Shown: positions 8,602 through 34,793 of the stretch, piece by piece
Layout of the letters: each line of letters begins with the position of its first letter
Position numbering within the stretch: position 1 is the stretch's first letter
DNA from: Candidatus Eiseniibacteriota bacterium
Lineage (GTDB): Bacteria; Eisenbacteria; RBG-16-71-46
Direction: 5' to 3'
DNA: 43,786 nucleotides
Assembly (NCBI GenBank): GCA_044222065.1
Contig: JBGAOA010000001.1
Location: forward strand, 125,715-169,500
The notes under the pieces: generated by a model
What the model was told of the DNA's origin: nothing
What the model saw: the letters and a program-made list of their open reading frames with translations, nothing else
Database searches by the model: none
Translations under genes and position numbers: made by a program

Positions 8602-8645
8602 GCGCGGCCGCGCGACCCGACCGGGAGAGCCGAACGAGACATCCG

Positions 8646-17500: not shown

Positions 17501-20247
17501 TGCCGTACCTGGACACGGGGGAGGTGCGGATCTTCCTCGGCGGCCCGGGAGCGGTGCGCGGCTTCACCGTGCACGGCCGGAACTCCTCGGACGCCTTCGG
17601 TCTCTCGGTGGCGGGCGGCGGCGACATCAACAACGACGGCTTTTCGGACGTCCTGATCGGCGCGGTCGGATACGACGCGGCGGGCACGGACTACGGCGCC
17701 GCGTTCGCGTGGTACGGATTCCTCGTGCCGGACGAGTCGCTCGGACTCACGTTCCTCGGCGCCTCGAACGGACAGTTCGGCGCCGCGACCGCGGTCGTCC
17801 CGAGATTCCGCGACGCGCTGCTCGCGACGATGTTCGTCGGCGCGCCGTACGACTCGCGCGTGAACAACTACGCCGGATCGGTTGCGGCCTACGAGATCGC
17901 ACGTCCCCGGCTGCTCGAGCCGCGGGGCGGCGGCACGTGGATCGCCGGGCGCCCGGCGACGGTGCGCTGGCGCGGCGAGCGCGCGGTGACGATCGAGCTG
18001 TCGCTCGACGACCGCCGAACGTGGACCGTGCTCGCGACCGGCGCGGGAGGATCGGCCGAGAACGAGTGGACGTTCACGGTGCCGGACGCGGCGACGCTCG
18101 AGGCGCGCGTGCGCCTCACGCTCGACGGCTACCGCGCGCTCGCGTCCACGTCCGAGACGAGCACCGGGACCTTCCGCATCGCGCCCGACGTGCCGATCCC
18201 CGCGAGCGCGTGGAGCGCGGCGACGGCCTCCGAGCACGGCGCGGCGCTCGGCACCGGCGCGCGCGTCGCCGCGATCGGCGACGTGAGCGGTGACGGCCAC
18301 GGCGACTTGCTCGTGCTCGAGGACGCGGCGGAGTCGCGCTTCGCGTGGCTGTGGCTCGCGGGGGAGGCGGCGGCGCGCGGGCCGTTCCTGCGCACCACTC
18401 CGGGCGCCGAGGTGTTCGCCGCGCCGGTCGGCGACTGGGACGGCGACGGCTTCGGCGATTTCGCGCTGGGACTCCCGGCGCTCGAAGGCACGGGCGTCGT
18501 GCGCCTGTATCGCGGCGGCGCCGACCCGGACACGGCGGCGTTCGTGACGCTGCGGGGCGCGGTGCCGGGCTCGCGCTTCGGCGCCGCGATCGCGGGCGGC
18601 GACCTCGACGGCGACGGCGCGAGCGACCTCGTCGTGGGCGCGCCCGGCGTGCGCAACAGCGCGATCCCGGGCCGCGTCGCGCTGTTCCTCGGCGGCGAGC
18701 ACGCGGACGCGATCGAAGACGGCGCACTCGCGATCGGTGTGGCGGGGGACGAGTTCGGCGCGGCGCTCGCGCTTCCCGGCGACCTGAACCGCGACGGCTG
18801 CCCCGAGATCGCCGTCGGCTCACCCGCGCGCGACAGCCTCGACGCCACGACGGGACGCGTCTACCTCTACTGCGGCGCGGCGACGGGCGGCGCGCCCCAG
18901 TTCACGCTCACGGGCGAGCGCGCGGACGACCGCTTCGGCGCGGCCGTCGCCGCGGCGGGCGACGTGAACGGCGACGGGTTCAACGATCTGATCGTCGGCG
19001 CGCCGGGCGCGGACGTCGAAGCCGCGCCCGAGCCGATGCGCGTGGACGCGGGGCGCGTGTCGCTGTTCTTCGGCGGCACGAACTTCGACCGCACCGCGGA
19101 CTGGACGATCACGGGTGCCGGTGCGGGCGCGCAGCTCGGCGGCGCGATCGCGGGCGGCGTGGACACGAACGGCGACGGTTTCGCCGACTGGCTCGCCGGC
19201 GCCGAATACTCGGGCGGCGACGAGCGCGGCGGCGCGTCGTTGTTCCAGGGCGGGATCCTGCCGGACACGCTCGCCGACGCCGCGTGGGACGGCGCGCATC
19301 CCGCGGCGCGTCTCGGCGAATCGCTCGCGCTCGTCGCGGAGCCGGGCGGATTCGCGCGCGTCGCGATCGCCTCGCCCGGCGCGAGCGGCGCCGTCGCGGT
19401 GCGCGAGTACGCGTCGTCGCGGTGGTGGGTGAGCGTGGCGGACACGGCGTGGCCGGTGGGCGCGACGCGCGCGGTGTCGTGGACGGGAGCGGAGCGCGCG
19501 GACGTGTGGCTCGAGCGCGCGGACGGCACGCGCGTGAAGCTCGCGGACGACGCGGGTGGGGCGGCATCGAACGCGCTCGAAGTGACGGTGCCGGCGGGCG
19601 CGGGCGAGTGCCGCGTGGTGCTGACGGCGAGTGCGAGCGGCGTGAGCGGCGAGGCGAAGAGCGCGCGCGTGCGGCTCGTGAGCACGGTGACGCTCGCGTC
19701 GTTCGAGGCGGCGACCTCGGGCGCGGCGGAAGTGCGGCTCGCGTGGGCGACGACGCCGAACGTGGCGGACGGCGGCGTGCAGTTCTACCGCGTGTACCGG
19801 CGCGCGCCGGGGATGGCGGCGGGCGAGCGCGTGGCGGATCGGGTGAGCGCGAACGAGGTGCGGCTCGAAGAGCACGCGCGGGGGGCGACGTACACGCTCG
19901 CCGCGGTGACGGCGGCGGGCGAGGAGTTCGTGCTCGGGGAGACGGCGACGCCGGCGGGGCCGCGCGGCCTCGTGGCGTATCCGGTGCCGGCGAGAGGCGA
20001 CGGGGTGACGATCGAGCTGACGGCGGCGACGCGCGGGGACGGCTGGACGCACGCGGACTTCGCGGTGCGGGTGTACGACGTGATGGGGCGCGAGGTGGCG
20101 ACGCTGGCGCGCGGGGCGCGCGCGACGGACCTCGGCGTGGTGCGGCTCACGTGGCCGGCGCGGGTGAAGGCGGGGCTCTATTTCGTGCGCGCCGAGACGC
20201 CGTCCCGGGGCGAGCGCCTCGAGCGGCGCGTCGTCGTGGTGAGGTGA
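14506..20247 (+). CDS. Giant secreted FG-GAP triple beta-propeller protein, paralogue 3 (1913 aa)
   Basis: GAGGTG SD-like sequence precedes the ATG. Signal peptide ending RAASA|Q, 19 FG-GAP motifs in three clusters, PNGGEVW-type spacers, a VTLASFEA domain and the C-terminus YDVMGREVATLARG...AGLYFVRA. Confidence 0.92.
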   Translation: MSLRRPPSCRRAVRIATAFALAAAVVCVRAASAQSSNALASEFLTVWGQYANDAFGAAISGGGDFDGDGAADFAVGAYGYPNRTSFGRVAVYRGGAALDGVPDWSVSGTASNDLLGWSLSLAGDLNDDGHADLVVSAPYQSHNWTRSGEVRVYFGGASPDSVADLVISGDAVNANLGVRVVVPGDVNGDGADDLLVGAYNATSQRGTVSLFFGGASLDTVPDLVLHSTRAADNFGFAIAPAGDVNGDGFADFIVGERTWSAYTPTRSEGRARVYFGGAAPDTVADLVFAGIAQGQQLGVEVAGGGDFNGDGYADVFVRDASRDARALFGGPAPDATPDLLIRDAFSVALIADLNGDALGELVVGGRDRASFFFGSTRPDSLPDVEFAISGSAAASEATAAAVGDVDGDGVGDLALGFYREGTSSLPRGGVHLLRFRRYAVLEPNAATEWVAGAAAVVRWAGADSADVELSLDDGAHWSPFVAAGGGGGVVEVPDTLVERARVRVVTPAGLGLAAADTSQPFAIRSHVVLEPATSGTFHVGDTLSTRWLGSRLADVELVSTDGATPVRVASGVGGASEDSVRFVVPLVHSDSVLVRVRAAGDPAAVAHAGRSPGRIRVIPFVVLAPNGGEVWESGGTDTVRWLGATTADVQYSPDHGATWVTLASRAGGAPENALPVTMPQVSSLSALVRVVASGYSASPGHFDESDATFIVTEISRLVDLPTRRLFEFAASEANERTGLVVADAGDWNGDGFRDVAIGAPFARVGANAEAGRVTVRFGGPEPGALPDVVLEGPAASSLFGSAIAGGGDFDGDGFDDLVVGAWSYNNGRGSIFLYRGGLVPDATADQRFSVTASSGITRLGQSLAFVGDWDGDGRDDFVAGQRSNTNGTSEAPIYLGSARLDSLPDIKLRSPAVNDPSFATRVARAGDFDGDGWPDVWVTRVPTVNDTSGYAYLYRGGPGSDVFIDREIRGSRAYGFASYGLDGVGDVNGDGYDDLAVGVPYLDTGEVRIFLGGPGAVRGFTVHGRNSSDAFGLSVAGGGDINNDGFSDVLIGAVGYDAAGTDYGAAFAWYGFLVPDESLGLTFLGASNGQFGAATAVVPRFRDALLATMFVGAPYDSRVNNYAGSVAAYEIARPRLLEPRGGGTWIAGRPATVRWRGERAVTIELSLDDRRTWTVLATGAGGSAENEWTFTVPDAATLEARVRLTLDGYRALASTSETSTGTFRIAPDVPIPASAWSAATASEHGAALGTGARVAAIGDVSGDGHGDLLVLEDAAESRFAWLWLAGEAAARGPFLRTTPGAEVFAAPVGDWDGDGFGDFALGLPALEGTGVVRLYRGGADPDTAAFVTLRGAVPGSRFGAAIAGGDLDGDGASDLVVGAPGVRNSAIPGRVALFLGGEHADAIEDGALAIGVAGDEFGAALALPGDLNRDGCPEIAVGSPARDSLDATTGRVYLYCGAATGGAPQFTLTGERADDRFGAAVAAAGDVNGDGFNDLIVGAPGADVEAAPEPMRVDAGRVSLFFGGTNFDRTADWTITGAGAGAQLGGAIAGGVDTNGDGFADWLAGAEYSGGDERGGASLFQGGILPDTLADAAWDGAHPAARLGESLALVAEPGGFARVAIASPGASGAVAVREYASSRWWVSVADTAWPVGATRAVSWTGAERADVWLERADGTRVKLADDAGGAASNALEVTVPAGAGECRVVLTASASGVSGEAKSARVRLVSTVTLASFEAATSGAAEVRLAWATTPNVADGGVQFYRVYRRAPGMAAGERVADRVSANEVRLEEHARGATYTLAAVTAAGEEFVLGETATPAGPRGLVAYPVPARGDGVTIELTAATRGDGWTHADFAVRVYDVMGREVATLARGARATDLGVVRLTWPARVKAGLYFVRAETPSRGERLERRVVVVR

Positions 20248-23228: not shown

Positions 23229-26039
23229 ATGAAGCCACCGTTCGGAGCGGACGGTTCCCACGATGCAGCGGGCGGGCGCGAACCGCGGCCTTCCGACGGC
23301 GGCACGCCGGCGTTCGATCCCGCGCGCTACGTTCTCGGCGCCGAAGATTCGGGCGAGCGAGCCTCGCGGCTGGCGTTCCTTGCGGCGCGCACGCGCAGCG
23401 CGGTGATGCTGCTCTCGCCGGTCGGCGAGATCGAGTGGGTGAACGAGAGCTTCGAGCGCATCACCGGATGGAGCGCCGCCGAGGCGATCGGCCGGCATCC
23501 GCACGACCTGCTCGCGCACCCGGACCTCGATCCGGCGGCGCTCGAGGCTCTGTACGCCGCGCAGCGCGACGGCCGTCCGATCGTCACGGAGATCGTCAAT
23601 CGCCAGCGCGGCGGCCGCACGTTCTGGCTCGACCTCGAACTGCTGCCGGTCCGCTCCGCAGACGGCGAGCTGCGCGGATTCGTCGCGATCGCGAACGACG
23701 TCACCGAGCGCCGCGACCTGCAGCAGCGCCTCCGGCTCTCGGACCAGATCCTCCAGCGCGCGAACGCGCTCGTGCTCGCCGCCGGCGAAGACGGTCGCAT
23801 CGTGTTCGCGAGCCCGGCGATCGAGAGCGTGCTCGGCTTCTCGTCCGGCGACCTGCTCGGCGACGGCTGGTGGCGCCTCACGTTTCCCGACGATTCCGAG
23901 CGGCGGCGCGCGCTCGAATGGCACGCGCGCGCGGCGCGCGGCGAGGTGCCGGCACACGAGCTCGGCCGCCGCTACGAGCGGCAGATCGCGCACCGCGACG
24001 GCTCGCCGCGCTGGATCCTGTGGCAGGACTCGCGGGTCTCGGGCGGCATGATCGTCGGCGTGGGACAGGACATCACCGCGCGGCGCGAGGCCGAGGAGCA
24101 GCTGCGCATCGCGCAGGAAGCGGCGCTCAACGCGGCGCGCGTGAAGGCGCAGTTCCTCGCGAACATGAGCCACGAGATCCGCACGCCGATGAACGGCGTG
24201 CTCGGCATGCTCGAGCTGCTGCTGGACACGCCGCTCGCGGAGGAGCCGCTCGAGTACGCGCGGCTCGCGCGCTCGAGCGCGACGAGCCTGCTGCAGGTGC
24301 TGAACGACATCCTCGACTTCTCGAAGATGGAAGCGGGCCGGCTCGAACTCGAACGCACGGCCTTCTCGCTGCGCGCGACGCTCGCGGATCTCGTGAAGCC
24401 GCTCGCGTACCGCGCGGGGCAGAAGGGGCTCGAACTCGCGCTCGACGTCCCGCCCGCGGTGCCCGACGCGCTGGAGGGCGATCCCGGCCGGCTGCGGCAG
24501 GTGCTCGTCAACCTGATCGGGAACGCGATCAAGTTCACGACCGAGGGCGAGATCGTCATCGCGGCGGAGCTGCGCGATCACGACGACGACGCGGTCGTGC
24601 TGCACTTCGCGGTTCGCGACACGGGGATCGGCGTGCCGCCCGAGCAGCACGCGAGGATCTTCGAGGCCTTCACGCAAGGGGACGGTTCGACGACGCGGCG
24701 CTTCGGCGGCACCGGGCTCGGCCTCGCGATCTCGTCCCAGATCGTGCAGCAGATGGGCGGCGAGATCTGGGTCGAGAGCGAGCCCGGCCACGGCTCGACG
24801 TTCCACTTCACCGTGAGACTCGGCCGCTCGGCGTCGGCGCCGGCCGCGCCCGCCGTTCCGGACGGCCTGCGCGGTGCGCGCGTGCTCGTGCTCGACGATC
24901 ACCGCACGAACCAGCGCATCCTGCGAGAATTGCTGCGCGGCTGGGGCCTGCGGCCGACGGTCGCCTCGACCGGGGCCGAGGCGCTCGAGACCGCGCGCCG
25001 CGCGAAGCTCGCGGGCGAAGCGTTCGCGCTCGCGCTGCTCGACGTGCAGCTGCCGGACACCGACGGGCTGACCGTTGCCGAGGGGCTGCGCCGCGAGCAC
25101 GGCGCCGCGTTCCCGATCGTGCTGATCGGCTCCGCCGGCCGCTCCGACGAGCCGGCGCGACGGAGCGCGCTCGGGCTGCGGCACGCGCTCGCGAAGCCGG
25201 TCACCTCGGGCGATCTGCTCGCCGCGATCCAGCGCGCGTGCGCGTCCGGCGACGCGCCCGAGGCAGCCCCGGACGCTCCGCGCACGCCGCGCGGGCGCGT
25301 GCTCGTCGCCGAGGACGATCCGATCCAGCAGGCCGTGTGCGTGCGCCAGCTCGAGAAGCGCGGCCTCGAGGTGCGCCACGTCGCGGACGGCGAGTCGGCG
25401 CTCGCGCTGCTCGAGCGTGAAGCGTTCGACCTCGCCGTGCTCGACCTCGAGATGCCGCGGCTCGACGGCCTCGCGACCCCCGCGCTGCTTCGCGCACGCG
25501 AACGCGCGGACGGCAGGCGCACGTTCGTGGTCGCGCTCTCGGCGCACGCGAGCGCGGGCGAGCGCCGGCGCTGCCTCGATGCCGGCATGGACGAGTTCCT
25601 CGAGAAGCCCGCGAGCGCCGAGGCGCTCGACGCGCTGCTCGACCGCGTGCTCGGGAGCCGCATCCGGCCCGCCGCGCCCGCGGCGCCGATCGAGAAGCCG
25701 GTCGTGGACGCGCGCGGGTTGCGGCTCGCGCTCGGCGACGACGAGTCGCTGCTCGAGGACATGGCGCGGCTCTACGAGAGCGAGACGCCGCTCCAGCTCG
25801 AGTCGCTCCGCGGCGCGCTCGCGGCCGGGGATGCCGGCGCCGTGAAGCTCGTCGCGCACCGCATGCGCGGCGGGTTCCAGGTGCTGCACGCGCCGCGCGG
25901 CGAGGCCGCGGCCCTTGCGCTCGAACAGGCCGCCGTCCGCGGCGAGCGCGACGCGTTCGCGGCCGCGTTCGAAACGCTCGAGCGCGAGGCGCGTGCGGTC
26001 GGCGGCGCGCTCCGCGAACTCGCGCGCCGCGCGGCCTAG
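23229..26039 (+). CDS. Cytoplasmic hybrid sensor histidine kinase (PAS-PAS-HisKA-HATPase-REC-REC-HPt)
   Basis: Two PAS/PAC units (WVNESFERITGW...DVTER; FASPAIESVLG...DITAR), H-box SHEIRTPMNG, N-box NLIGNAIKFT, DTGIG and GGTGLGL. Two REC domains (LLDVQLP, VLDLEMP) and HPt AHRMRG. No transmembrane segment. Confidence 0.95.
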   Translation: MKPPFGADGSHDAAGGREPRPSDGGTPAFDPARYVLGAEDSGERASRLAFLAARTRSAVMLLSPVGEIEWVNESFERITGWSAAEAIGRHPHDLLAHPDLDPAALEALYAAQRDGRPIVTEIVNRQRGGRTFWLDLELLPVRSADGELRGFVAIANDVTERRDLQQRLRLSDQILQRANALVLAAGEDGRIVFASPAIESVLGFSSGDLLGDGWWRLTFPDDSERRRALEWHARAARGEVPAHELGRRYERQIAHRDGSPRWILWQDSRVSGGMIVGVGQDITARREAEEQLRIAQEAALNAARVKAQFLANMSHEIRTPMNGVLGMLELLLDTPLAEEPLEYARLARSSATSLLQVLNDILDFSKMEAGRLELERTAFSLRATLADLVKPLAYRAGQKGLELALDVPPAVPDALEGDPGRLRQVLVNLIGNAIKFTTEGEIVIAAELRDHDDDAVVLHFAVRDTGIGVPPEQHARIFEAFTQGDGSTTRRFGGTGLGLAISSQIVQQMGGEIWVESEPGHGSTFHFTVRLGRSASAPAAPAVPDGLRGARVLVLDDHRTNQRILRELLRGWGLRPTVASTGAEALETARRAKLAGEAFALALLDVQLPDTDGLTVAEGLRREHGAAFPIVLIGSAGRSDEPARRSALGLRHALAKPVTSGDLLAAIQRACASGDAPEAAPDAPRTPRGRVLVAEDDPIQQAVCVRQLEKRGLEVRHVADGESALALLEREAFDLAVLDLEMPRLDGLATPALLRARERADGRRTFVVALSAHASAGERRRCLDAGMDEFLEKPASAEALDALLDRVLGSRIRPAAPAAPIEKPVVDARGLRLALGDDESLLEDMARLYESETPLQLESLRGALAAGDAGAVKLVAHRMRGGFQVLHAPRGEAAALALEQAAVRGERDAFAAAFETLEREARAVGGALRELARRAA

Positions 26040-26160: not shown

Positions 26161-26925
26161 TCAGCGCTTCGGCAGTTCGAAGCGGAATTCGGGGTTGATC
26201 TGGCGGATCTCGCCGACGACGCGCTCGAGCGACTCCTCCGTCGCCTCGCTCGGCTCCTTCTTCCACGCCGAGTACAGCTCGAGCAGCTCGTCCTGCTTGA
26301 GGCGCAGCAGTTCCGCCTGCTGGTGCTGATTCACCGAGCGCTCGAGGTGGTAGACCTCGCCGTTCGAGAGCCGCTGCACGAGGTCCAGGTATTCGCCGCG
26401 CATGTGCGACAGGATCTTCAGGTACTTCTCGAATCCGACCGAGAGCTTCTCGAGCACTTCGGCCACGCCCTGGTTCTTGCGCGGCATCTGCTGACTGTAG
26501 GTGTAGGCGAAGTGGTAGTAGGTCTTGCCGCGGCCGACGTAGGCCTCTTCGCTCGGCTGCGCCTTCGCGCGCGCCGACTCGGCCATGGACGGATTGTCGA
26601 AGATGCCGATCGAGACCAGCAGGAAGTCGGCGTTGGTCTTGTAGATCTGGTACTTGAGCCGCGCGTCGCCCGAGTTCGACAGCCGGTGGAACACGTCGGT
26701 GTCGTACTTCGAGAGGAAGCGGCGGGACTGCTCCACGTAGTCGGGATTGATGAACGAGTGGAGCAGGTGCGCGAGGTAGACGTTGACGTCCTCGTCGTAG
26801 AAGTCCTGGTTGGACACGAGGCCCGTCTCCATGCGGCTGTACAGGAGGCAGTTGACCATGAAGTAGTAGGTCGGCTGCAGGTTCCTGCTCGTGTCCTTGA
26901 GATCCACGTAGTGACGGGGGTTCAT
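26161..26925 (-). CDS. Hypothetical protein, Tyr-rich and predicted all-helical (254 aa)
   Basis: ATG at 26925 with SD GAGGAGAGG. The composition is protein-like (many Y/N/K/F) and the GC content is visibly lower than in neighbouring genes. No recognised catalytic motif. Confidence 0.88.
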   Translation of the reverse strand: MNPRHYVDLKDTSRNLQPTYYFMVNCLLYSRMETGLVSNQDFYDEDVNVYLAHLLHSFINPDYVEQSRRFLSKYDTDVFHRLSNSGDARLKYQIYKTNADFLLVSIGIFDNPSMAESARAKAQPSEEAYVGRGKTYYHFAYTYSQQMPRKNQGVAEVLEKLSVGFEKYLKILSHMRGEYLDLVQRLSNGEVYHLERSVNQHQQAELLRLKQDELLELYSAWKKEPSEATEESLERVVGEIRQINPEFRFELPKR

Positions 26926-26993
26926 GCGACCTCTCCTCGCGAGCGCTCCACCCGGGTTTCGGGCGGTCGAACGCTCTTCCCGCGATTCCATCG

Positions 26994-27009
26994 AGCAGCC
27001 GTCGTGCCA
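26994..27009 (-). promoter_or_regulatory. Sigma54 (-24/-12) promoter of the hypothetical gene
   Basis: The minus strand reads TGGCACGACGGCTGCT, i.e. GG-N10-GC, matching TGGCACG-N4-TTGCW at all but one fixed position. It lies about 70 nt upstream of the ATG. Confidence 0.72.
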
Positions 27010-27406
27010 CGCGGCCGCGGGCGCGACGAATCGCGCCCGGACGCGGCACGCGCACGAGTTTCGGCCGCGCGCGGTCGCGATGAAGCCGCGTTCGGACAGC
27101 GCGTTCGCGCCGCGGGCCGCAGGCATTGGGGCGAATGCCCCGACCGGCGGCGCCTCGGACGTCCTCGCGGACGCCTGCGGAGGTCAGCGCACCCGTCCGG
27201 GTGCCTCGTGCGGATTTCGCAATGGATTTGAGGAACGAGAAAGGGTTTTGATACCGCCCGTGCTCTCGAACCCGTGCTCCTGCGCCGACTTCGCGGCCGA
27301 CGTGCGATTTGCGAGCGGCATGCGGCGCGCACGCGAGGGTCGTGGCGGACTCGCCGCGACCGCGCGCGAGCGACGCGGCCGCGGCCGCGGAGCGCGAGGC
27401 GCTGGA

Positions 27407-27422
27407 GGGCATGGGACTTGCC
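27407..27422 (+). promoter_or_regulatory. Sigma54 (-24/-12) promoter of the chemosensory-like operon
   Basis: GGGCATGGGACTTGCC, i.e. GG-N10-GC with GGCA and TTGC cores, 55 nt upstream of ATG 27478. Confidence 0.62.
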
Positions 27423-27477
27423 TGAACCTCCGCCGTCCTCGCCGCTCCCGCAGCGTCCCGAACCCGATCGCGCATCC

Positions 27478-28932
27478 ATGTCCACCGCACCTCGCTCCAC
27501 TTCCCGCGCGGACTCGGAGCCGGAGGCTCGACTGAGCCTCCGGCTCCGGCGCTGGTTCGCCTGCCTCGGCGGCGCGCTCGTCACCGCGCTCGGCGTGTGG
27601 TGGATCGTCGGCACGCAGTTCGGCCCGACGGTCGCCGATCCCGCGGTCGCCGTCGTGTCGCTGCTCGGCTCCGTGGCGGCCGGGGTGCTGCTCGGGCTGC
27701 TGCTCGCGCTGTGGCTCGACCGCCACGTGCTCGCGCAGCTGCGCGGCGTCTCGCGTTCGCTGCGCGACCGCGACCCGTACGCGCTCAAGGGGCTGCCGTC
27801 GAACTCCGGCTGGGGCGAGCTGAGCGACCTGACGTCCGAGGTCTCGCTGCGCATCGCGCGCGAGAAGCAGCTCGAGCGCATCGCAGCCGAGGCGAACGTG
27901 CTCCGCGAAGGTCTCGACGAGGCGCGCCAGCGCATCGAACGCTGGTCGCGCACCGAGGCATGGGAGCCCTTCGGGCCCCGCACCGGCCCGGTGGCCGCGC
28001 TCGCCGAGTCGCTCGACCGCGCGTTCGAACGCGACCTCGAGGCGCGCGACCAGAACCTGGAAGCCGCGCGGCAGATCAAAGGCGCGCTCACCGACGCGCG
28101 CGGCGACGCGCGCGAGTCCGTCGAGCAGGCGGAGCGCGGCTTCGTCGAATCCACGGCCCTGCTCACGACCGTGCGCGAGCTGCAGCGCCTCTCGGGCGAG
28201 CTGCGCATCGCGCTCGAAGCCGCCGGCGTCGAGCCCGTCGCCGCGGGCGGGAGCGCGCGCGAGGCGGCGGCGGCGGCGATCGAGGAGCTGGTCGCGGCGT
28301 CGGCCGAGAGCGTGGAGCACCTGTCGGCCGGGCTCGCGCGCGTGCGCGAGATCTCGGATCACGTCCAGCTCGTCGCGAACCGCGCGACGCTCGTCGCGCT
28401 CCAGGCGGCGAGCACGGGCGGCGCGCCCGAGGGCAGCGAGCGCTTCGAGGAACTGCGCCGGCTCACGCGCGACGTGCGGCTCGCGAGCGAAGGCGCGGAA
28501 TCGGTCGCGCGCACCGTCGCGCGCGCGGCGGCGGCGGCGAACGAGCGCATGCACGCGGTCCGCGCGAGCGTGGGTTCGCGGCTCGCAGGGCTGCCCGCCG
28601 AGGCGTCGGGCACGGCGCGTCCGAACGACGACGCCGCGCGGCTGCTCGAGCGCGTGCGCGAGATGGTCCAGGACGCGACCCGCAAGGGCGAGCGGCTGTC
28701 GGCCGCGGGCGAGCGCAGCTCGCGCGCCGCCGAGCGGCTCGCGCGCCGGCTCGACGACCAGTGCGCCGAGATGGAAGGCCTCGTCGTGCGCCTGACGCGC
28801 GCGACGCCGGACACGGCCGCCGAGGGCGGAGCGGGCGAGCCGCTGCGCCTGCTCGAGACCGAGTCCACGACCGAAGCGCTGCTCGAAGGTCCGGACGACG
28901 CGCGCCGCGGGCGCAGCGAGGAGCGGCCGTGA
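27478..28932 (+). CDS. Divergent methyl-accepting-chemotaxis-protein-like membrane protein (484 aa)
   Basis: Two closely spaced N-terminal TM helices, a HAMP-like segment (LAQLRGVSRSL...GELSDL) and long coiled coils. VANRATLVALQAA resembles the MCP signature IA.QTNLLALNAA, but the following tip motif is degenerate. Confidence 0.7.
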   Translation: MSTAPRSTSRADSEPEARLSLRLRRWFACLGGALVTALGVWWIVGTQFGPTVADPAVAVVSLLGSVAAGVLLGLLLALWLDRHVLAQLRGVSRSLRDRDPYALKGLPSNSGWGELSDLTSEVSLRIAREKQLERIAAEANVLREGLDEARQRIERWSRTEAWEPFGPRTGPVAALAESLDRAFERDLEARDQNLEAARQIKGALTDARGDARESVEQAERGFVESTALLTTVRELQRLSGELRIALEAAGVEPVAAGGSAREAAAAAIEELVAASAESVEHLSAGLARVREISDHVQLVANRATLVALQAASTGGAPEGSERFEELRRLTRDVRLASEGAESVARTVARAAAAANERMHAVRASVGSRLAGLPAEASGTARPNDDAARLLERVREMVQDATRKGERLSAAGERSSRAAERLARRLDDQCAEMEGLVVRLTRATPDTAAEGGAGEPLRLLETESTTEALLEGPDDARRGRSEERP

Positions 28933-31028
28933 GCGATCCCGAACGCGACGATCCGGCGCGCGAACTGGCGCGCGGGCTCGCGCGCGCGCTCGAAGAAGCG
29001 CTCGCGCCCGGAGCCGATCCGCTGAAGCTCCGCGCGGCGCGTGAAGTCGCGGCCCTGCTCGGACTCGAGGCGACGGCGAACGCGCTCGCCGCGTTCGAGC
29101 CGCACGCCGGCAAGCCCTGGCCCCAGGAGCTGTCGCCGCTGCGCGACCGCCTGCTGCGCACCGCCGAGCGCTGCGCCGCCGCGGGCGACGCGCGCGCGTT
29201 CCGCGCGGCGGATGCCGAGATCGCCGGGCTCGCCGAGGAGACGGGCGCGCTCGAGTGGACGCGGCTCCCGTACGCGCCGGCGCTCGCCACCGTGTCGGCC
29301 GCGCGCACGCTCGAAGACCTGCCGCTCGACGACTCGACGATCGCGCGGCTGCACGCGGCGCGGCTCTCGACGCCGGGGGCGGCGGCGCTGCGCGCCGCGC
29401 TCGACTGGCTCGATGCGCCGTCGGCCGGCACGCGCGTTCGCGTGCGCACCGACGACGCCGTGCTCGACGTGAAGCTCCCGCTCGCCGCGCCCGACGGGCT
29501 CGACGCCGCGGCCGACGTGCTCGCCGAGGCCGAGGGCGCGCTGCTGCCGCCCGCCGCGGGCGACGCCACGTGGACGATCCGCCTGCCGCTCGTCGGCACG
29601 CGCGAGACGTTCCTCATGGTCGAGCGCGAAGGCGTTCCGGTCGCGATTCCCTGGAGCGCGATCGCACAGCTCCAGATCGTGCCCGCCGGGGACCTCGAGG
29701 CGCGCGCCGAGGCGGTCGAGATGCCGATCCTCTGGACGCCGCCGGCGCCGCGCCCCGCCGAACTGCCGGTCGCGACGCTCGTGCGCGGTCTGCGGCGCGC
29801 GTGGTTCCCCGCCACGCGCATCGTGTGGCGGCTCCCGGCCGAGCCCTGTCCGTCGGAGGGCGCGGTGCTCGACGCCGGCTTCCGCGACGCGGTCCGAACG
29901 AGCGACGGCGAGGTCTACGGCCGGCTCGACGTGACCGAGGCGCTCGCGCGCGTGCCCGCGACGCCGTTCACGCGCGACGCGTTTGCAGCGCCCCCGCCCG
30001 CCGAGCCGCCGCGCGCTCCGCGCGTCGCGGCCCCCGCGCCGCGTCCGTCCGCGCGCATCGTGCCGGCGCCGCCGGCGCCGCTCGCGCTTCCGAGCGACGC
30101 CGTGACGCCGATCGAAGCGGACGTGCCGCCGGTGATCGCCCCGCGTGCGCCGCAGTGGCTCGGCCGCGAGGCCGTCACGCCGCTCGAACCCGCGGCGCCG
30201 CCGCCGCCCGCGGAAGCGACCGCGGGCGACTCGACCACGGAACTCGACGCCGCGCTCGACGCGTTGCTGCCGTCGGTGTCCGGGTCCGAATCGGGCGCGC
30301 CCGAACCGGCGGCGGCTCCGGCCGCGCCCGCTCGAGCGGATGCGCCCGGCCGCGAACGCGAATCGGCGCCCGCGAGCGAACCGCCCACGCGCGCGCCCGA
30401 ACCCGTGATCGTGACGCGCGCGGAGTCGTCCGCCGGTGCCGAGGCCTTCGTTCCGCCTCCGGCGCCGGCCGCGCCCGCAGCCACCGCGCGGGAGGCCATC
30501 GTTCCGCCTCCCGCGCAGGCTCCGCCGGCGTTGTTCGCCGCGCCCGAGGCGGGCTTCGCGCCGCCGGCCGCGGCCGAGCCGCCGGCGCCGCGGCCGTTCG
30601 ACGACGCGCGCCGCGGCTTCGCGCTCGCGCCCGAAGCGCCGGCGCCCTCCCGCGGGCGCGCGCTGGTCGCGGAGGACTCGCTCGTCGCGCGCACGTTCCT
30701 GCAGCGGCTGCTCGAGCGCGAAGGCTACGCGGTGCGCGGGGTCGAGCGCGCGTCGGAACTGTGGTCGGCGCTCGAGGCCGAGCGCTTCGACCTCCTGTGC
30801 GTGGACGTCGAGCTGCCCGACGCCCGCGGCGAGGCGCTGCTGCACGCCGCCGTCGGCGCGGCGCAGGCGCACGGCGTGGCGCTCGTCGTGCCGCTCACGC
30901 GCGACGCCGACGACGACCGCATCGCCGCGTGCGCCGGGCTCACGCGTGCGTTCCACAAGCCGTTCGACGGCGACGAAGTGCGCGCCGTGCTCGAGCGCGC
31001 GGGGCTGCCGCGCCGGGAGATCGCGTGA
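28929..31028 (+). CDS. Degenerate CheA-like hybrid: pseudo-HPt, pseudo-HATPase, CheW-like domain, Pro/Ala-rich linker and REC (699 aa)
   Basis: GTGA overlap with the upstream stop. LRAAREVAALLGL resembles AHSLKGAAALLGL; GLDAAADVLAEAEG...WTIRLPL resembles GMDVV...GG...FTIRLPL; FLMVEREGVPVAIPWSAI resembles a CheW start. C-terminal REC: LVAEDS...FDLLCVDVELP...KPF. Confidence 0.72.
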   Translation: MSDPERDDPARELARGLARALEEALAPGADPLKLRAAREVAALLGLEATANALAAFEPHAGKPWPQELSPLRDRLLRTAERCAAAGDARAFRAADAEIAGLAEETGALEWTRLPYAPALATVSAARTLEDLPLDDSTIARLHAARLSTPGAAALRAALDWLDAPSAGTRVRVRTDDAVLDVKLPLAAPDGLDAAADVLAEAEGALLPPAAGDATWTIRLPLVGTRETFLMVEREGVPVAIPWSAIAQLQIVPAGDLEARAEAVEMPILWTPPAPRPAELPVATLVRGLRRAWFPATRIVWRLPAEPCPSEGAVLDAGFRDAVRTSDGEVYGRLDVTEALARVPATPFTRDAFAAPPPAEPPRAPRVAAPAPRPSARIVPAPPAPLALPSDAVTPIEADVPPVIAPRAPQWLGREAVTPLEPAAPPPPAEATAGDSTTELDAALDALLPSVSGSESGAPEPAAAPAAPARADAPGRERESAPASEPPTRAPEPVIVTRAESSAGAEAFVPPPAPAAPAATAREAIVPPPAQAPPALFAAPEAGFAPPAAAEPPAPRPFDDARRGFALAPEAPAPSRGRALVAEDSLVARTFLQRLLEREGYAVRGVERASELWSALEAERFDLLCVDVELPDARGEALLHAAVGAAQAHGVALVVPLTRDADDDRIAACAGLTRAFHKPFDGDEVRAVLERAGLPRREIA

Positions 31029-32500
31029 GCAGCGCCTCGCCCTTCTCGCCGCTGCCTCGCGAGCTGCCGTGCGTGCTGATCGTGGACGACGACCGGCGCG
31101 TCGTGGAGCTGCTCGACTTCGCGCTGACCTCGCAGGGCTTCCGCACGCTCACGGCGAGCGATGGCGACGAGGCGCTGCAGCGCGTCCGCGAAGGCCGCCC
31201 CGACCTGGTCGTGCTCGACGTGCGGCTGCCGAAGCGCAGCGGTCTCGACGTGTGCGACGCGATGCGGCGCACGCCCGAGCACTCCGCCGTGCCCATCATC
31301 GTGGTGTCCGCGGCCTCCGAGACCGAAGCGCGGCTGCAGGCGCTCGCCCGCGGCGCGGACGACTACCTCGCGAAGCCGTTCTCGCCGAAGGAACTCGTCG
31401 CCCGCATCCAGCGCCTGCTCGCGCGCTCGGCCGAGGGCCGCGCGGCGCGCGACCGCAACGCGCAGCTCGAGCGCGACCTCGCGCGTGCGCTCGACGAGCG
31501 GAAGCGCGCGCTCGATCGCGCCGGACGCGAGCAGGAGCTGCGCGAGATCGCGCTCGAGCTCGGACCCGAGATGCGGCGCACGCTCGACGCCGAGGGCGTC
31601 GCGCGCCGCCTGCTCGATGCGACGCTGCGCCGCCTGCGTGCGCCGGGCGCGGCGTTGTTCGTGGCGGGGCGCTCGGGGCGCTTCGAGCCATTCGCGGCGC
31701 GCGGGACGAGCGCGCGGATCGAGACGTTGTCGCTCGCGAGCGACGGCGAACTCGCCGCGTACCTGGCCGCGCTCGCGCGTCCGGTCGAGCGGGCGGAACT
31801 CGAGCGCGTGCACGAACTGGAGCTCGAGCTGCGCGCGCTCGCGCCCTCCGCCGCCGCCGTGCTCGTGCCGCTCCCGGACGATTCCGGCGCGCCGGCGCTG
31901 CTCGTGCTCGCCGAGCGTCCGGACGGCCGCCTGGCCGCGGCGGAACGCGAATCGCTCGCGGCGCTCGCGCGCATCGGCGCCGAGGCGTTCGCGACGGCGC
32001 TGCGGCTCGAACGGCTCGAGCGCGATGTCGTGGACGTGCTCGCGCTGCGCGCCGAGTCGGAGCGCGACGAAGCCGAACGCCTCGCCGCGGACGAAGCGGC
32101 GTTGCGCGCGCTGCGCGCCGGACTCGAGTGCGGGCTCGACGGCCGCACGCTCGAGCGCCTCGATCGTGCGGTGCGGCTCGGCGCGTGGCTCGATGCGCCC
32201 GAGGGCCTGCTCGCGCTCGACCGTTTCCGCGTCGCGGCGCCATCCGGGCTGCTCGCGCGGCTCGCCGCGCTGTGCACGGCCGCCGCCGACCTCGCGCACT
32301 GCGCCGACGATCCGTTCACGTGCCGCGCCGCGACGCTCGTCGCGCTGGGCCGCGCCTACGCGGCCGCGCGCTCGTCCGGTGCGGGGCGCGAGACCGCGCT
32401 CGTGCGCGCCCTCGCGAGCGCGGCCGCCGGCGAACCGACGGCGCTGCGGCGCTTCGCCGAGGCCGGGACACCGTCCGCCGACGAGGGACGCGCGGCCTGA
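31025..32500 (+). CDS. Response regulator: REC, coiled coil, GAF and a degenerate HD-GYP-like helical domain (491 aa)
   Basis: GTGA overlap. Intact REC (VLIVDDD, LVVLDVRLP, VSA, YLAKPF) and a GAF-like region (TLDAEGV...VLVPL...LLVLAER...ERESLAALA). The C-terminal helices follow HD-GYP spacing but lack the HD and GYP residues. Confidence 0.8.
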   Translation: MSSASPFSPLPRELPCVLIVDDDRRVVELLDFALTSQGFRTLTASDGDEALQRVREGRPDLVVLDVRLPKRSGLDVCDAMRRTPEHSAVPIIVVSAASETEARLQALARGADDYLAKPFSPKELVARIQRLLARSAEGRAARDRNAQLERDLARALDERKRALDRAGREQELREIALELGPEMRRTLDAEGVARRLLDATLRRLRAPGAALFVAGRSGRFEPFAARGTSARIETLSLASDGELAAYLAALARPVERAELERVHELELELRALAPSAAAVLVPLPDDSGAPALLVLAERPDGRLAAAERESLAALARIGAEAFATALRLERLERDVVDVLALRAESERDEAERLAADEAALRALRAGLECGLDGRTLERLDRAVRLGAWLDAPEGLLALDRFRVAAPSGLLARLAALCTAAADLAHCADDPFTCRAATLVALGRAYAAARSSGAGRETALVRALASAAAGEPTALRRFAEAGTPSADEGRAA

Positions 32501-32521
32501 CGCGGCCGCGCCGCAAACGCG

Positions 32522-32554
32522 CGAGGGCGGAGGCACGGCCTCCGCCCTCGTTTC
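32522..32554. terminator. Bidirectional intrinsic terminator between convergent operons
   Basis: 13-bp perfect stem CGAGGGCGGAGGC-ACG-GCCTCCGCCCTCG, followed by TTTC on the plus strand and CGCGTTT on the minus strand. Confidence 0.7.
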
Positions 32555-32564
32555 GCTTCCGCGG

Positions 32565-33146
32565 CTACTTGTTCTGCCGCAGGCCGCTCATGTCCACCTT
32601 GGGAACCTCGCGTTCCGCCTCGGGGACTTCGTAGTACTTCGACTCGGAGTAATTGAACATGCCGGCGAAGATGTTCGTGGGGAACCGCTTCACCTTCACG
32701 TTGTAGCTGCGCACCTCGTCGTTGTAGCGCATGCGCTCCGTCGCGATGCGGTTCTCGGTGCCGGCGATCTCGTCCTGGAGCCGCAGGAAGTTCTCGTTGC
32801 TCTTGAGCACCGGGTAGTTCTCGACCACGACGAGGAGGCGCGAAATCGCGCTGTCCATCGCGCGCGCGGCGTCCACCTGCTCGTCCTGCGTCTTCGCGCC
32901 GGACATGCGCGCGCGCGCGTCGGCGATCGCGCCGAACACTTCCTGCTCCTGGATCGCCGCGCCCTTCACGGTCTCGACCAGGTTCCCGATGAGGTCGTTG
33001 CGGCGCTTGAGCTGGTTGTCCACCTGCGCCCAGCGGTTCGACACCGCCTCCTTGGCCGAGACGAGGCCGTTGTAGTTGCCGACGACCCAGCCGCCGATCG
33101 CGAGCACGACAACCGCGAGGACACCGAGCACCACCGCTGCCTTCAT
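32565..33146 (-). CDS. lemA: LemA family protein (193 aa)
   Basis: N-terminal TM helix and motifs YNGLV, WAQVDNQLKRRNDLI, ENYPVLKSNENFLRLQDEIAGTENRI, YND and FPTNIFA. SD AAGGAG. Confidence 0.95.
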   Translation of the reverse strand: MKAAVVLGVLAVVVLAIGGWVVGNYNGLVSAKEAVSNRWAQVDNQLKRRNDLIGNLVETVKGAAIQEQEVFGAIADARARMSGAKTQDEQVDAARAMDSAISRLLVVVENYPVLKSNENFLRLQDEIAGTENRIATERMRYNDEVRSYNVKVKRFPTNIFAGMFNYSESKYYEVPEAEREVPKVDMSGLRQNK

Positions 33147-33195
33147 TCCTGTCGCTCCTTTCGTGAACGCCCGCGGGTCACGCGGGCGGGGGAAA

Positions 33196-34044
33196 CTACC
33201 ACGAGCCGCCGCCGCCGCCGCCGCCGCTGCCGAAGCCGCCGCCGCCGCCGAAACCGCCGAACGAGCCGCCGCCTCCGCCGCCTCCTCCTCCGAAGCCGCC
33301 ACCGCCGAAGCCGCCACCCCAGCCGCCACCCCAGCCGCCGTCGTACCAGCCCGACCGGCGCCGGCGCCGGCGGCCGAGGTACGGCCCGCCGAGCGGCATC
33401 CCGGAAGCGGTCGCGTAGCGCTGCGCGCTCACGCCGATCACGAGGATCGCGATGAGCAGGAACAGGACGAGCGCGACGACGAGGCGCGGCAGTTTCGGCG
33501 AGCGCGTCCGGTAGCGGGGCTCGCTGCCGTTCCATTCGAGCGTCACGCCCTTCGCCTTCGCGATGCGCTGCGCGCAAGCGAGCACGCCCTGCGTGATGCC
33601 GCTCTCGTAGTCGCCGTCGCGGAAGCGCGGCGCCATGCGCTCGCGCACGACCGAGGACTCGAAGCCGTCGGTGAGCGTGCCTTCGAGGCCGTAGCCGGTC
33701 TCGAATTCGACGCGCCGCTCCTTCACGGCGACGAGCATCAGCAGCCCTTCGTACGGCTCCTGGTTCGCGAGTTTCCACTCGTGGTAGACGCGCGTCTTGT
33801 AGGCGCGCGGATCGTCCGGCGCCGTCGTCGGCACGGTGAGCACGGCGAAGTACGCGCCCGTCTTCTTCTGCACCTGCACGAGGAACGACTCGAGCTTCGC
33901 GCGAGCGGCCTCGTCCATCAGGCCGGCCGTGTCGTTCACGTACCCGACGGGCGCGGGGATCGGCGCCTCGTCGGCGAACGCGGCGGAAGCCGTGACGAGG
34001 GCGACGACGAGCAGCAGCGTGCGCACGAGGCGCGGGGCGCTCAT
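33196..34044 (-). CDS. TPM domain membrane protein with Gly-rich tail (282 aa)
   Basis: Signal peptide; VNDTAGLM, ETGYGLEGTLTD, PRFRDGDY..GI; a C-terminal TM helix, an Arg run and a GGFGGG...GGSW tail. The start overlaps the upstream stop (ATGA). Confidence 0.92.
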   Translation of the reverse strand: MSAPRLVRTLLLVVALVTASAAFADEAPIPAPVGYVNDTAGLMDEAARAKLESFLVQVQKKTGAYFAVLTVPTTAPDDPRAYKTRVYHEWKLANQEPYEGLLMLVAVKERRVEFETGYGLEGTLTDGFESSVVRERMAPRFRDGDYESGITQGVLACAQRIAKAKGVTLEWNGSEPRYRTRSPKLPRLVVALVLFLLIAILVIGVSAQRYATASGMPLGGPYLGRRRRRRSGWYDGGWGGGWGGGFGGGGFGGGGGGGGGSFGGFGGGGGFGSGGGGGGGSW

Positions 34045-34793
34045 GAAACGCGGAACGTGTCGATGCCGGCGATGAGCCGTTCGAGCGCCTCGAGGAACCG
34101 GAGATAGCCGCCGGCGACGTCGCCGTGCGGGGCGCCGCCGCCGTGGCGCACGAGGTGCGGGACGAGCAGCGCGCTCGCGTCCACGTGGAACGCGTCCGCG
34201 ACGCGCTCGACGACGTGCGCGGAGGACGCCGGCGGCTGGTCCCCGCGCAGCCGCAGCAGCGTGCGGAACAGGGTCGCGAAGCCGCTCGCGGACGCGGCGA
34301 GCGTCTCGGCGAGCGCGGCGGAATCGCCGTGCAGCGCGAGGTAGCTCTGGCGCAGGCGGATGTGCTTGGAGCGCAGTTCGTGCTCGCACTGGAGCCGCAG
34401 GTTCGCGCGCGGCACTTCGAACTTCTCGACGACCGGCTCGCCCTCGAGCAGCAGGTGCCGCTCGCGGATCTCGAGCCACTCGATCGGGAAGACGTCGAGC
34501 GACTTCTCGATCTGCGCCTCGGTGAGGAACAGCGGGTCCACGAAGGGCGGCTTCTTCGGCCGCGGCGCTGCGCTCGCGACCGCGCGCAGCGCGTCGGCGC
34601 CGAGCTCGGAGGCGATGACGAGCAGGTTCACGCGCGAGCGCTTGGGATCGAAGCCGTCCACGAGCGCGCTGCCCGTGACGTACGCGGCGCGGAAACGGCC
34701 GCCGAGCGCCTGTCGCACGGGAGCGAGCCAGGCGCGGAGGGCCTCGAGCGTCGAGGCGTCGGGTTCGATTCGGAGTTCGCGGAGTTCGTTCAT
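34041..34793 (-). CDS. Nucleotidyltransferase-fold protein with degenerate active site (250 aa)
   Basis: YVTGSALVDGFDPKRSRVNLLVI follows the GS-x(n)-SD-x-D NTase pattern with both Asp residues replaced. It also has DVFPIEWLEI and LRLQCEHELR and is the first gene of the TPM-LemA operon. Confidence 0.75.
   Translation of the reverse strand: MNELRELRIEPDASTLEALRAWLAPVRQALGGRFRAAYVTGSALVDGFDPKRSRVNLLVIASELGADALRAVASAAPRPKKPPFVDPLFLTEAQIEKSLDVFPIEWLEIRERHLLLEGEPVVEKFEVPRANLRLQCEHELRSKHIRLRQSYLALHGDSAALAETLAASASGFATLFRTLLRLRGDQPPASSAHVVERVADAFHVDASALLVPHLVRHGGGAPHGDVAGGYLRFLEALERLIAGIDTFRVS

Follow-up and report, generated by a model that had tools for sequence, protein, structure and literature searches.

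A sensorless receptor homologue, a pseudo-CheA and a regulator with a dead HD-GYP domain form a conserved operon in Candidatus Eiseniibacteriota

Wsp, Chp and Frz are chemosensory systems of the alternative cellular function (ACF) and type IV pilus (Tfp) classes that are built on hybrids of CheA and a receiver. According to the accessible sections of a survey of 13,673 CheAs, the domains P1, P3, P4 and P5 constitute the minimal functional unit of the kinase, and the one dead-kinase case reported there is CheA3 of R. sphaeroides (Cereibacter), which carries a shrunken, non-functional HATPase_c beside P5 and depends on an active partner (PMC10782961). At the output end, the accessible part of another study describes PA2572 of P. 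aeruginosa, a receiver (REC) protein with an inactive YN-GYP, as a dead REC-HD-GYP protein that binds the orphan methyl-accepting chemotaxis protein (MCP) PA2573 (PMC3411652). Here we describe an operon of a Candidatus Eiseniibacteriota bacterium (assembly GCA_044222065.1, contig JBGAOA010000001.1, positions 125,715-169,500, forward strand; this whole stretch of 43,786 nucleotides (nt) is referred to as the window) in which an MCP homologue has lost its sensing domain, and a relative of CheA and a REC-GAF regulator their catalytic residues, while all three genes are maintained under purifying selection. The trio consists of the following open reading frames (ORFs):

27478-28932, + strand: ORF1, 484 amino acids (aa), a sensorless MCP homologue
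28929-31028, + strand: ORF2, 699 aa, a pseudo-CheA with an HPt-like bundle, a lidless P4, a P5/CheW-like domain, a Pro-rich linker and a receiver, and no P3
31025-32500, + strand: ORF3, 491 aa, with the order REC, coiled coil, GAF, truncated dead HD-GYP

The original prediction, which had read this region as a chemosensory-like operon of pseudo-enzymes, described three stop-free ORFs joined by GTGA overlaps, and translation of all three agrees. It also took five kilobases without stops as an argument against decay; the frames are intact, but this alone is weak proof, because long shadow ORFs are abundant by chance in window DNA of 76-80% GC, and the real evidence of maintenance lies in conservation and in the ratio of nonsynonymous to synonymous substitution rates (dN/dS). 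The two receiver domains are the sole Pfam/NCBIfam matches of the three window proteins, whose homologues belong to Candidatus Eisenbacteria. In what follows, f1, f2 and so on up to f18 label families within the phylum, f1 being that of the window, while G-numbers and L-numbers denote the genomes and loci compared. A literature search, mostly outside subscription papers, found no published description of the operon, and none stands in the accessible part of 10.1101/2025.11.25.690425.

ORF2 is, as modelled, a tandem of P4 and P5 folds of CheA ancestry. Its predicted structure has a predicted local distance difference test score mostly above 90 across residues 11-340, with the receiver confident as well, and the best seven Foldseek matches are all CheA (E 1.7e-9 to 1e-7). 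The link to canonical kinases runs through the fuller pseudo-CheA of family f10: hhalign joined ORF2 168-347 to it with a probability of 97.5, its profile hit CheA chains only in the PDB, and its model matched P1 (Z 12-13), P3-P4 (Z 14.2), P4 (Z 14.6) and CheW (Z 11.2). In the P4 comparison, 127 residues of the f10 protein align to 188 of CheA P4 1i58, so that some 60 residues are gone. Among 1.84 billion representatives, the next relatives of the f10 pseudo-CheA are ordinary CheAs; of 91 long ones, 74 keep the His motif and 73 the N-box motif, and 40 end in a receiver, a feature that assigns no chemosensory class. Profile proof against canonical CheA alone failed for both N-terminal parts of ORF2, the HPt-like segment (residues 1-110) matching canonical P1 weakly (probability 1.4, E 0.036) and residues 116-224 matching P4 at a probability of 2.5; nothing in the N-terminal part matched P3. 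A wide search with the complete ORF2 model found nothing but receivers and does not bear on the N-terminal part, and residues 1-345 retrieved from the ESM Atlas unnamed clusters first and then Hpt+CheW clusters at 0.90. The domains of ORF2 lie as follows:

28953-29246, + strand: HPt-like helical bundle, residues 9-106, with Arg35 at the phospho-His site in the probable register
29286-29594, + strand: HATPase_c remnant, approximately residues 120-222, with the N-box Asn changed to Ala156 and the G1-G2 lid deleted
29595-29963, + strand: P5/CheW-like domain, residues 223-345
30654-31004, + strand: receiver (PF00072, E 1.3e-11), with D626 and K677 kept

The predicted loss of the phospho-His, the N-box and the G boxes of CheA holds well beyond the window. 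The motif H[ST]xKG occurs in 0/36 f1/f3 and in 0/55 f10 pseudo-CheAs, the phospho-His site being Arg in the window and in 55/55 f10 proteins; a His stands in that column, without the motif, in two of the 36 f1/f3 rows. At the N-box position we found Ala in 35/36 f1/f3 proteins, Glu in 48/55 f10 proteins and Asn in none, with the His and N-box registers partly set by eye against normal chemosensory proteins of the same genome. The HPt-like domain is deleted altogether in three f1 loci (L004, L009 and L011). In addition, the window model leaves no room for the P3 dimerisation domain between the N-terminal bundle and P4, whereas P3 is present in f10. Judged by the residues that define the enzyme, ORF2 is outside the CheA kinases. 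It resembles canonical CheA (T. maritima 1b3q/2ch4/3ur1, E. coli 6s1k) in its P4-P5 fold, and in f10 also in P1 and P3, but differs in having, in f1, neither phospho-His, N-box Asn, lid nor P3.

ORF1 is an MCP homologue by virtue of its MCPsignal coiled coil. A profile of 128 ORF1 orthologues matches the T. maritima MCP 2ch7 (E 2.5e-8), and PF00015 scores above its cut-off in the orthologues of f10 and G009; on the window protein by itself PF00015 gave no match. Its parts are the following:

Residues ~26-46 and 57-80: two hydrophobic helices separated by a loop of ~10 residues, as read from the protein
Remainder: HAMP-like linker, signalling coiled coil and disordered tail
28378-28401, + strand: descending half of the receptor tip, residues 301-308, with the derived motif NRATL; the hairpin turn after it is eroded

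The loop is too short to hold a periplasmic sensor domain, and none is present. The tip, which the original prediction had described as eroded, proved to be so in its second half, where the canonical form survives in 2/128 orthologues and GFxVVAxE in 0/128; its descending half, on the other hand, is a strongly conserved derived motif, with NR[AS]T in 118/128 proteins and N301, R302, T304, L305 and A307 conserved in 122, 123, 121, 121 and 126 of the 128, respectively. The difference is apparent from the tip of an ordinary receptor of the same genome, EQTNLLALNATIEAARAG, set against that of ORF1, NRATLVALQAASTGG. The hairpin tip through which receptors form trimers and arrays is accordingly incomplete in ORF1, while it is largely kept or nearly whole in f4, f10 and f12. 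CheR is present in two of five carrier genomes.

ORF3 contains a receiver, matched by Pfam with an E of 8.6e-31, that is the most conserved domain of the operon; GAF and HD_5 domains are detected in its orthologues. Aligned by hhalign with intact REC-GAF-HD-GYP orthologues, which share its operon position, ORF3 reaches a probability of 100 (E 4.8e-71) over 376 columns, and the alignment stops just upstream of the HD motif. That motif is found in 0/41 near-full f1/f3 proteins, in which HHE, GYP and the downstream Arg-containing segment have been deleted or replaced and the remnant shows almost no invariant residue. The predicted erosion of the HD and GYP residues is thereby confirmed, and ORF3 falls, by its defining residues, outside the HD-GYP enzymes. 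Among 88 distinct orthologues, those from elsewhere in the phylum have a domain that is complete, with all of the HD, HHE, GYP and D metal ligands (f2, f10, f12, f17 and f18), complete or nearly so beside degenerate receivers (f7/f8), or partly degenerate (f4, f9, f11, f13, f14 and f15). The original prediction had named orthologues with catalytic residues as a finding that would tell against it; the intact HD-GYP domains of those five families date the loss in ORF3 and do not refute the prediction, and none of the other contrary findings that it named was made.

Both receivers of the window have the acidic pocket, phospho-Asp, T/S and Lys, as predicted, but the statement weakens across orthologues: in ORF2, Asp is kept in 49/50 and Lys in 46/50, with Thr at the T/S position in only 15/50, and in 11/87 ORF3 proteins (6/46 in f1/f3), which come from several lineages, G, S, N or E takes the place of the phospho-Asp. 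The unconserved Thr of ORF2, together with the replaced Asp of ORF3, makes control by phosphorylation optional. The idea of phosphorylation in trans is weaker than the original prediction put it, given the exceptions just listed and the many carriers without CheA.

Conservation of the trio is apparent at the level of gene order. ORF1 was found in 34/41 genomes and in 23 of the 24 of f1, at one locus each (two with split matches); the full trio stands together in 19 of the 23 f1 loci, and the other four run off contig ends. The order of the trio is therefore conserved in related genomes, as the original prediction had proposed to check. Another of its checks, dN/dS (Nei-Gojobori, unsaturated pairs only, one duplicate pair removed), yielded values of 0.09-0.42 in close pairs: 0.09-0.40 for ORF1 (13 distinct pairs), 0.13-0.42 for the N-terminal part of ORF2 (six pairs), 0.13-0.35 for the ORF2 receiver (three pairs), and 0.15 and 0.25 for the dead HD of ORF3 (two pairs). 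The pseudo-CheA of f10, which has many invariant derived residues, gave 0.07-0.19 (five pairs), and the divergent gene upstream of the operon, here called the anchor gene, 0.00-0.19. A further 25 distant pairs, duplicates included, had medians of 0.47-0.73 and were set aside, dS being saturated. The trio is real and maintained under purifying selection.

It is also maintained in genomes in which no CheA was detected. No CheW, CheR or CheB gene is in the window, in line with the prediction. The window genome itself encodes two intact CheA clusters elsewhere, besides 7 MCP, 5 GGDEF and 7 HD_5 matches; 11 of 20 f1 genomes, however, have no CheW match, and eight of these carry the trio. Moreover, in five genomes of 98-100% completeness (G009, G017, G013, G010 and G026) the trio is present with no PF02895, PF01584 or other PF00015 match, so that it does not serve as an accessory to an ordinary kinase. 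Of the four core parts of a chemosensory system (receptor, active CheA, CheW and CheY-type protein) the operon does not have the full set, as it includes no active CheA. PilT was found in 5/5 and FliG in 2/5 of the genomes checked; pili would accordingly be a likelier target than flagella if the output is motility.

Across the phylum, the operon has been reduced differently in each family. The fullest form, that of f10, reads CheW-MCP-pseudoCheA-STAS/GAF/HD-REC/GAF/HD-GYP; f12 has CheW-MCP-P5 only-regulator; f2 has a tipless MCP, an HPt-like protein with a pseudo-receiver, and an intact regulator; f4 has MCP-regulator, its tip kept without ORF2 or CheW; and in f7 and f17 the regulator gene alone remains. 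A CheW gene lies inside the operon in f10 and f12 only (weak CheW matches in f7/f8, at L167-L171, were rejected as members, those loci having no operon). Since none of the operons fetched contained a catalytic CheA, loss of the kinase is likely, on this sampling of sequences, to be older than the sampled families, and loss of the phosphodiesterase later. Among 57 chosen loci, scored with profiles built from f1 and f10, the receptor tip and P5 were both detected in 11/11 f1, 4/6 f3, 4/4 f10 and 3/3 f12 loci, and both undetected in the other two f3 loci and in f2, f7, f8, f9, f11, f13, f14, f15, f17 and f18. Tip and P5 are, in other words, kept or lost jointly, f4 with its tip alone being the exception.

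Several loci of this series have features of their own. In G011 (L018:6566-10009, - strand), ORF1 and ORF2 are in one frame and ORF3 is short, probably through assembly indels. In f14 (L129:9842-10969 and L130:9742-10803, - strand), an unrelated gene of ~350 aa with a signal-peptide-like start occupies the place of the pseudo-CheA between MCP and regulator. The f10 operons contain, beside the intact enzyme, an extra STAS-GAF-HD-GYP paralogue with RD for HD (L138:4435-6891 and L145:4928-6808, + strand), and at six f10 loci (L153-L158) a normal CheA-CheW-MCP-CheY cluster, partial in L158, lies convergent a few kilobases downstream.

Like the ACF/Tfp hybrids, ORF2 has a C-terminal receiver and no P2, and the f10 order is CheW-MCP-CheA-output; unlike them, the f1 operon has no CheW, CheR, CheB or CheY, and its output is an HD-GYP, dead in f1/f3. 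A c-di-GMP (cyclic di-GMP) enzyme as output recalls Wsp with WspR, as far as the accessible part of PMC3411652 describes it. From that same part comes the likeness to PA2572/PA2573, where an MCP is tied to a dead REC-HD-GYP that acts by REC contact (PMC3411652). That likeness is drawn as an analogy; the P. aeruginosa pair includes no pseudo-CheA, and ORF3 differs in its GAF and in an HD domain that is reduced much further.

Short peptide motifs in the disordered parts of ORF1 and ORF2 provide a lead on how the proteins might meet:

30087-30182, + strand: two variant copies of L-x-x-x-[DE]-V-x-P in the ORF2 linker, residues 387-394 and 411-418, a candidate docking site
28843-28866, + strand: tail motif of ORF1, residues 456-463

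The ORF2 linker is Pro-rich, 31-228 residues long and unalignable, yet the strict linker motif recurs in 17/36 linkers against 0.56 in shuffles, and a loose form in 26/32 f1 rows against 6.6. In the ORF1 tails, [LM]R[LV][LIV] is found in 101/128 against 0.46 in shuffles, with a fuller form, L-x-x-x-D-[VLF], in f2, f3 and f12; all of these patterns were picked after inspection of the sequences. Both motifs are short, conserved, disordered, near receivers and made of Leu, acidic and hydrophobic residues, as is the N-terminal CheY-docking peptide of FliM/FliY with its EIDALL motif, going by the accessible text of PMC9126983. The likeness is by eye only, and the V-x-P-L end seen here would break a FliM-type helix. 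The peptides are candidate receiver-docking sites, a lead and nothing firmer. An extra short helix resembling EIDALL occurs in the ORF2 linker at 30240-30269 (+ strand, residues 438-447), and EIDALL-like stretches are present in L006 and P0257, both with linkers that lack the main motif.

Signals bounding the operon were also assessed:

27407-27421, + strand: sigma54-type -24/-12 promoter motif, 71 nt upstream of ORF1, probably used as a promoter
32521-32551, no strand assigned: 14-bp hairpin, a likely terminator, between ORF3 and the convergent lemA

The sigma54-like promoter of the original prediction is supported by its motif: the pattern GG[CT]A[CT]-N5-[TC]TGC stands upstream of ORF1 in 23/23 f1 loci and in 0/8 f2/f3 loci, with 0.68 loci expected in all 31 from shuffles, and rpoN was found in 5/5 genomes checked. 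The claim of a strong terminator fared less well: although the hairpin folds better than 200/200 shuffles (z -3.6), it has a short U-tract and is absent from the list of the terminator scan. Sludge RNA includes near-identical strandless contigs, from four runs in two studies, over parts of the three ORFs and both junctions; being strandless, and with one of them spanning the inter-promoter region as well, they are not counted as expression. In the intergenic region 26926-27477, conserved short boxes at ~27105-27141 (with a small inverted repeat) and 27320-27333 are possible activator sites.

The module works like a chemosensory receptor-adaptor-regulator unit, and the explanation towards which we lean is that the operon encodes a membrane-anchored, non-catalytic scaffold that would position and control ORF3 by protein contact. 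The three homologies, the conserved synteny and the purifying selection fit this scaffold, which the original prediction had also proposed. In its favour are likewise the carriers that have no CheA, the joint retention of tip and P5, linker and tail motifs far more frequent than in shuffles, and the precedent of PA2572/PA2573. In it, ORF1 would form a dimer in the inner membrane and, having no periplasmic domain, respond to the membrane itself or to a partner embedded there. The P5 of ORF2 would be held by that half of the ORF1 tip which is conserved; a complex prediction with two copies of ORF1 258-372 and one of ORF2 118-346 scored 0.55, with one control at 0.38, a result from which we conclude nothing about this contact. 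Hexagonal arrays would not form, the hairpin residues and CheW being gone. Peptides of the ORF1 tail and the ORF2 linker would dock a receiver, most likely that of ORF3, and ORF3 would contact its target by way of its REC and GAF surfaces, much as the ancestral protein may have localised c-di-GMP breakdown. An unrelated histidine kinase may modulate the module by phosphorylating the receivers, but not every lineage would require this. A broader and bolder version, which we regard as possible but put forward tentatively, would make an enzyme-free platform a core feature of the phylum: a sensorless receptor, a monomeric pseudo-CheA and FliM-like peptides would capture a receiver and signal by docking alone, and the families would represent successive stages of conversion.

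Several observations weigh against the scaffold. The dN/dS of the operon is several-fold above that of the anchor gene, and since the window's genome had no closely related partner among the pairs, the values are not those of its own lineage. The tip and P5 profiles come from f1 and f10, so that distance lowers both scores, and related loci are not independent; P5 still scores weakly, at up to 13 bits, in f11/f13/f15, and f4 retains its tip in an operon without ORF2 or CheW. No ORF2 domain is retained in every family, as slow erosion would give. The linker motif is absent from four f3 linkers, and both window copies are variants with Ala in place of D/E. The contacts, location and role assigned to the scaffold are deduced from sequence data.

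Some of these facts suit other explanations. A switch driven by phosphorylation, in which an unrelated histidine kinase phosphorylates both receivers while ORF1 and ORF2 serve as tether or phosphate sink, draws on the Asp kept in 76/87 ORF3 proteins, on the Asp and Lys of ORF2 (49/50 and 46/50), on ORF3 REC being the most conserved domain and on the role of CheA receivers as phosphate sinks reported in the accessible sections of PMC10782961. We nonetheless hold it to be rather unlikely, considering the 11/87 ORF3 proteins, from several lineages, that have exchanged the phospho-Asp, the unconserved T/S of ORF2, the absence of any kinase gene conserved beside the operon, and the pseudo-receiver that f7 combines with a complete or near-complete HD-GYP. 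Slow reductive decay, with only ORF3 mattering and the rest held by weak selection or translational coupling, would explain why each family has lost different parts, with ORF3 as the sole remnant in f7 and f17, and why dN/dS exceeds that of the neighbours (distant-pair medians of 0.47-0.73, with dS saturated). It is improbable, and for f1 and f10 largely refuted already, given dN/dS of 0.09-0.42 in unsaturated pairs, 0.07-0.19 with invariant derived residues in the f10 pseudo-CheA, the NRAT tip in 118/128 orthologues, the promoter motif in 23/23 loci and frames that stay intact at 40-50% protein identity.

The dead HD of ORF3 could act as a c-di-GMP receptor and the module as a c-di-GMP effector platform, in a genome with 5 GGDEF and 7 HD_5 matches and with the remnant under selection; yet HHE, GYP and the Arg segment have not survived in f1/f3 and the remnant has nearly no invariant residues, which makes this very improbable and better suited to f11/f13/f14/f15, where most of the domain is kept, than to f1. 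Least probable of all, and already contradicted by the carriers without CheA, is that ORF2 is half of a split kinase joining a normal CheA array encoded elsewhere. Like CheA3, ORF2 keeps a structurally shrunken HATPase_c next to P5, the window genome has two intact CheAs, and a normal cluster lies within a few kilobases in some f10 genomes. CheA3, however, as described in the accessible sections of PMC10782961, keeps a phosphorylatable His, which ORF2 does not, and has a phosphorylated HPt together with active CheA4 in the same operon, whereas many trio genomes have no active partner: 5/5 near-complete carriers are without a CheA dimerisation domain, and eight trio-bearing f1 genomes without a CheW match.

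The surroundings of the operon are partly conserved as well:

26161-26925, - strand: anchor gene, 254 aa, divergent from the operon and preceded by a separate sigma54-like site (26995-27009)

The anchor gene is present in 148/151 genomes of the phylum, and the operon sits behind it throughout; its sigma54 site follows the strict pattern in just 2/31 loci. Its product has no Pfam/NCBIfam match and retrieves from the ESM Atlas unnamed clusters, with look-alikes in Omnitrophota. The protein is ~80% identical within f1, and the gene is duplicated in f10; it still adjoins the regulator at loci that have lost MCP and pseudo-CheA, and is a candidate target or partner of ORF3. Convergent with the operon, at 32565-34793 (- strand), are lemA, a TPM-domain gene with a Gly-rich tail and a 250-aa gene without a Pfam match, a block that usually follows it in f1, f2 and f3. 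A hybrid kinase (23229-26039, + strand; PAS-PAS-HisKA-HATPase-REC-REC-HPt), convergent with the anchor gene, was rejected as cognate phosphodonor, its position not being conserved in relatives. Farther upstream lie, in tandem, three giant genes whose products are FG-GAP repeat proteins of 1900-2570 aa (311-8032, 8313-14441 and 14506-20247, + strand).

The significance of the operon lies in a CheA that selection maintains, without its His, its ATP site or, in f1, its dimerisation domain, in genomes that have no other CheA. A pseudo-CheA of this kind escapes Pfam-based surveys, so that chemosensory modules without a kinase may form a class that has been overlooked. In addition, the phylum offers a graded series, from a near-complete operon to a single gene, which makes both the loss of catalysis and the role of the contact between receptor and P5 testable.

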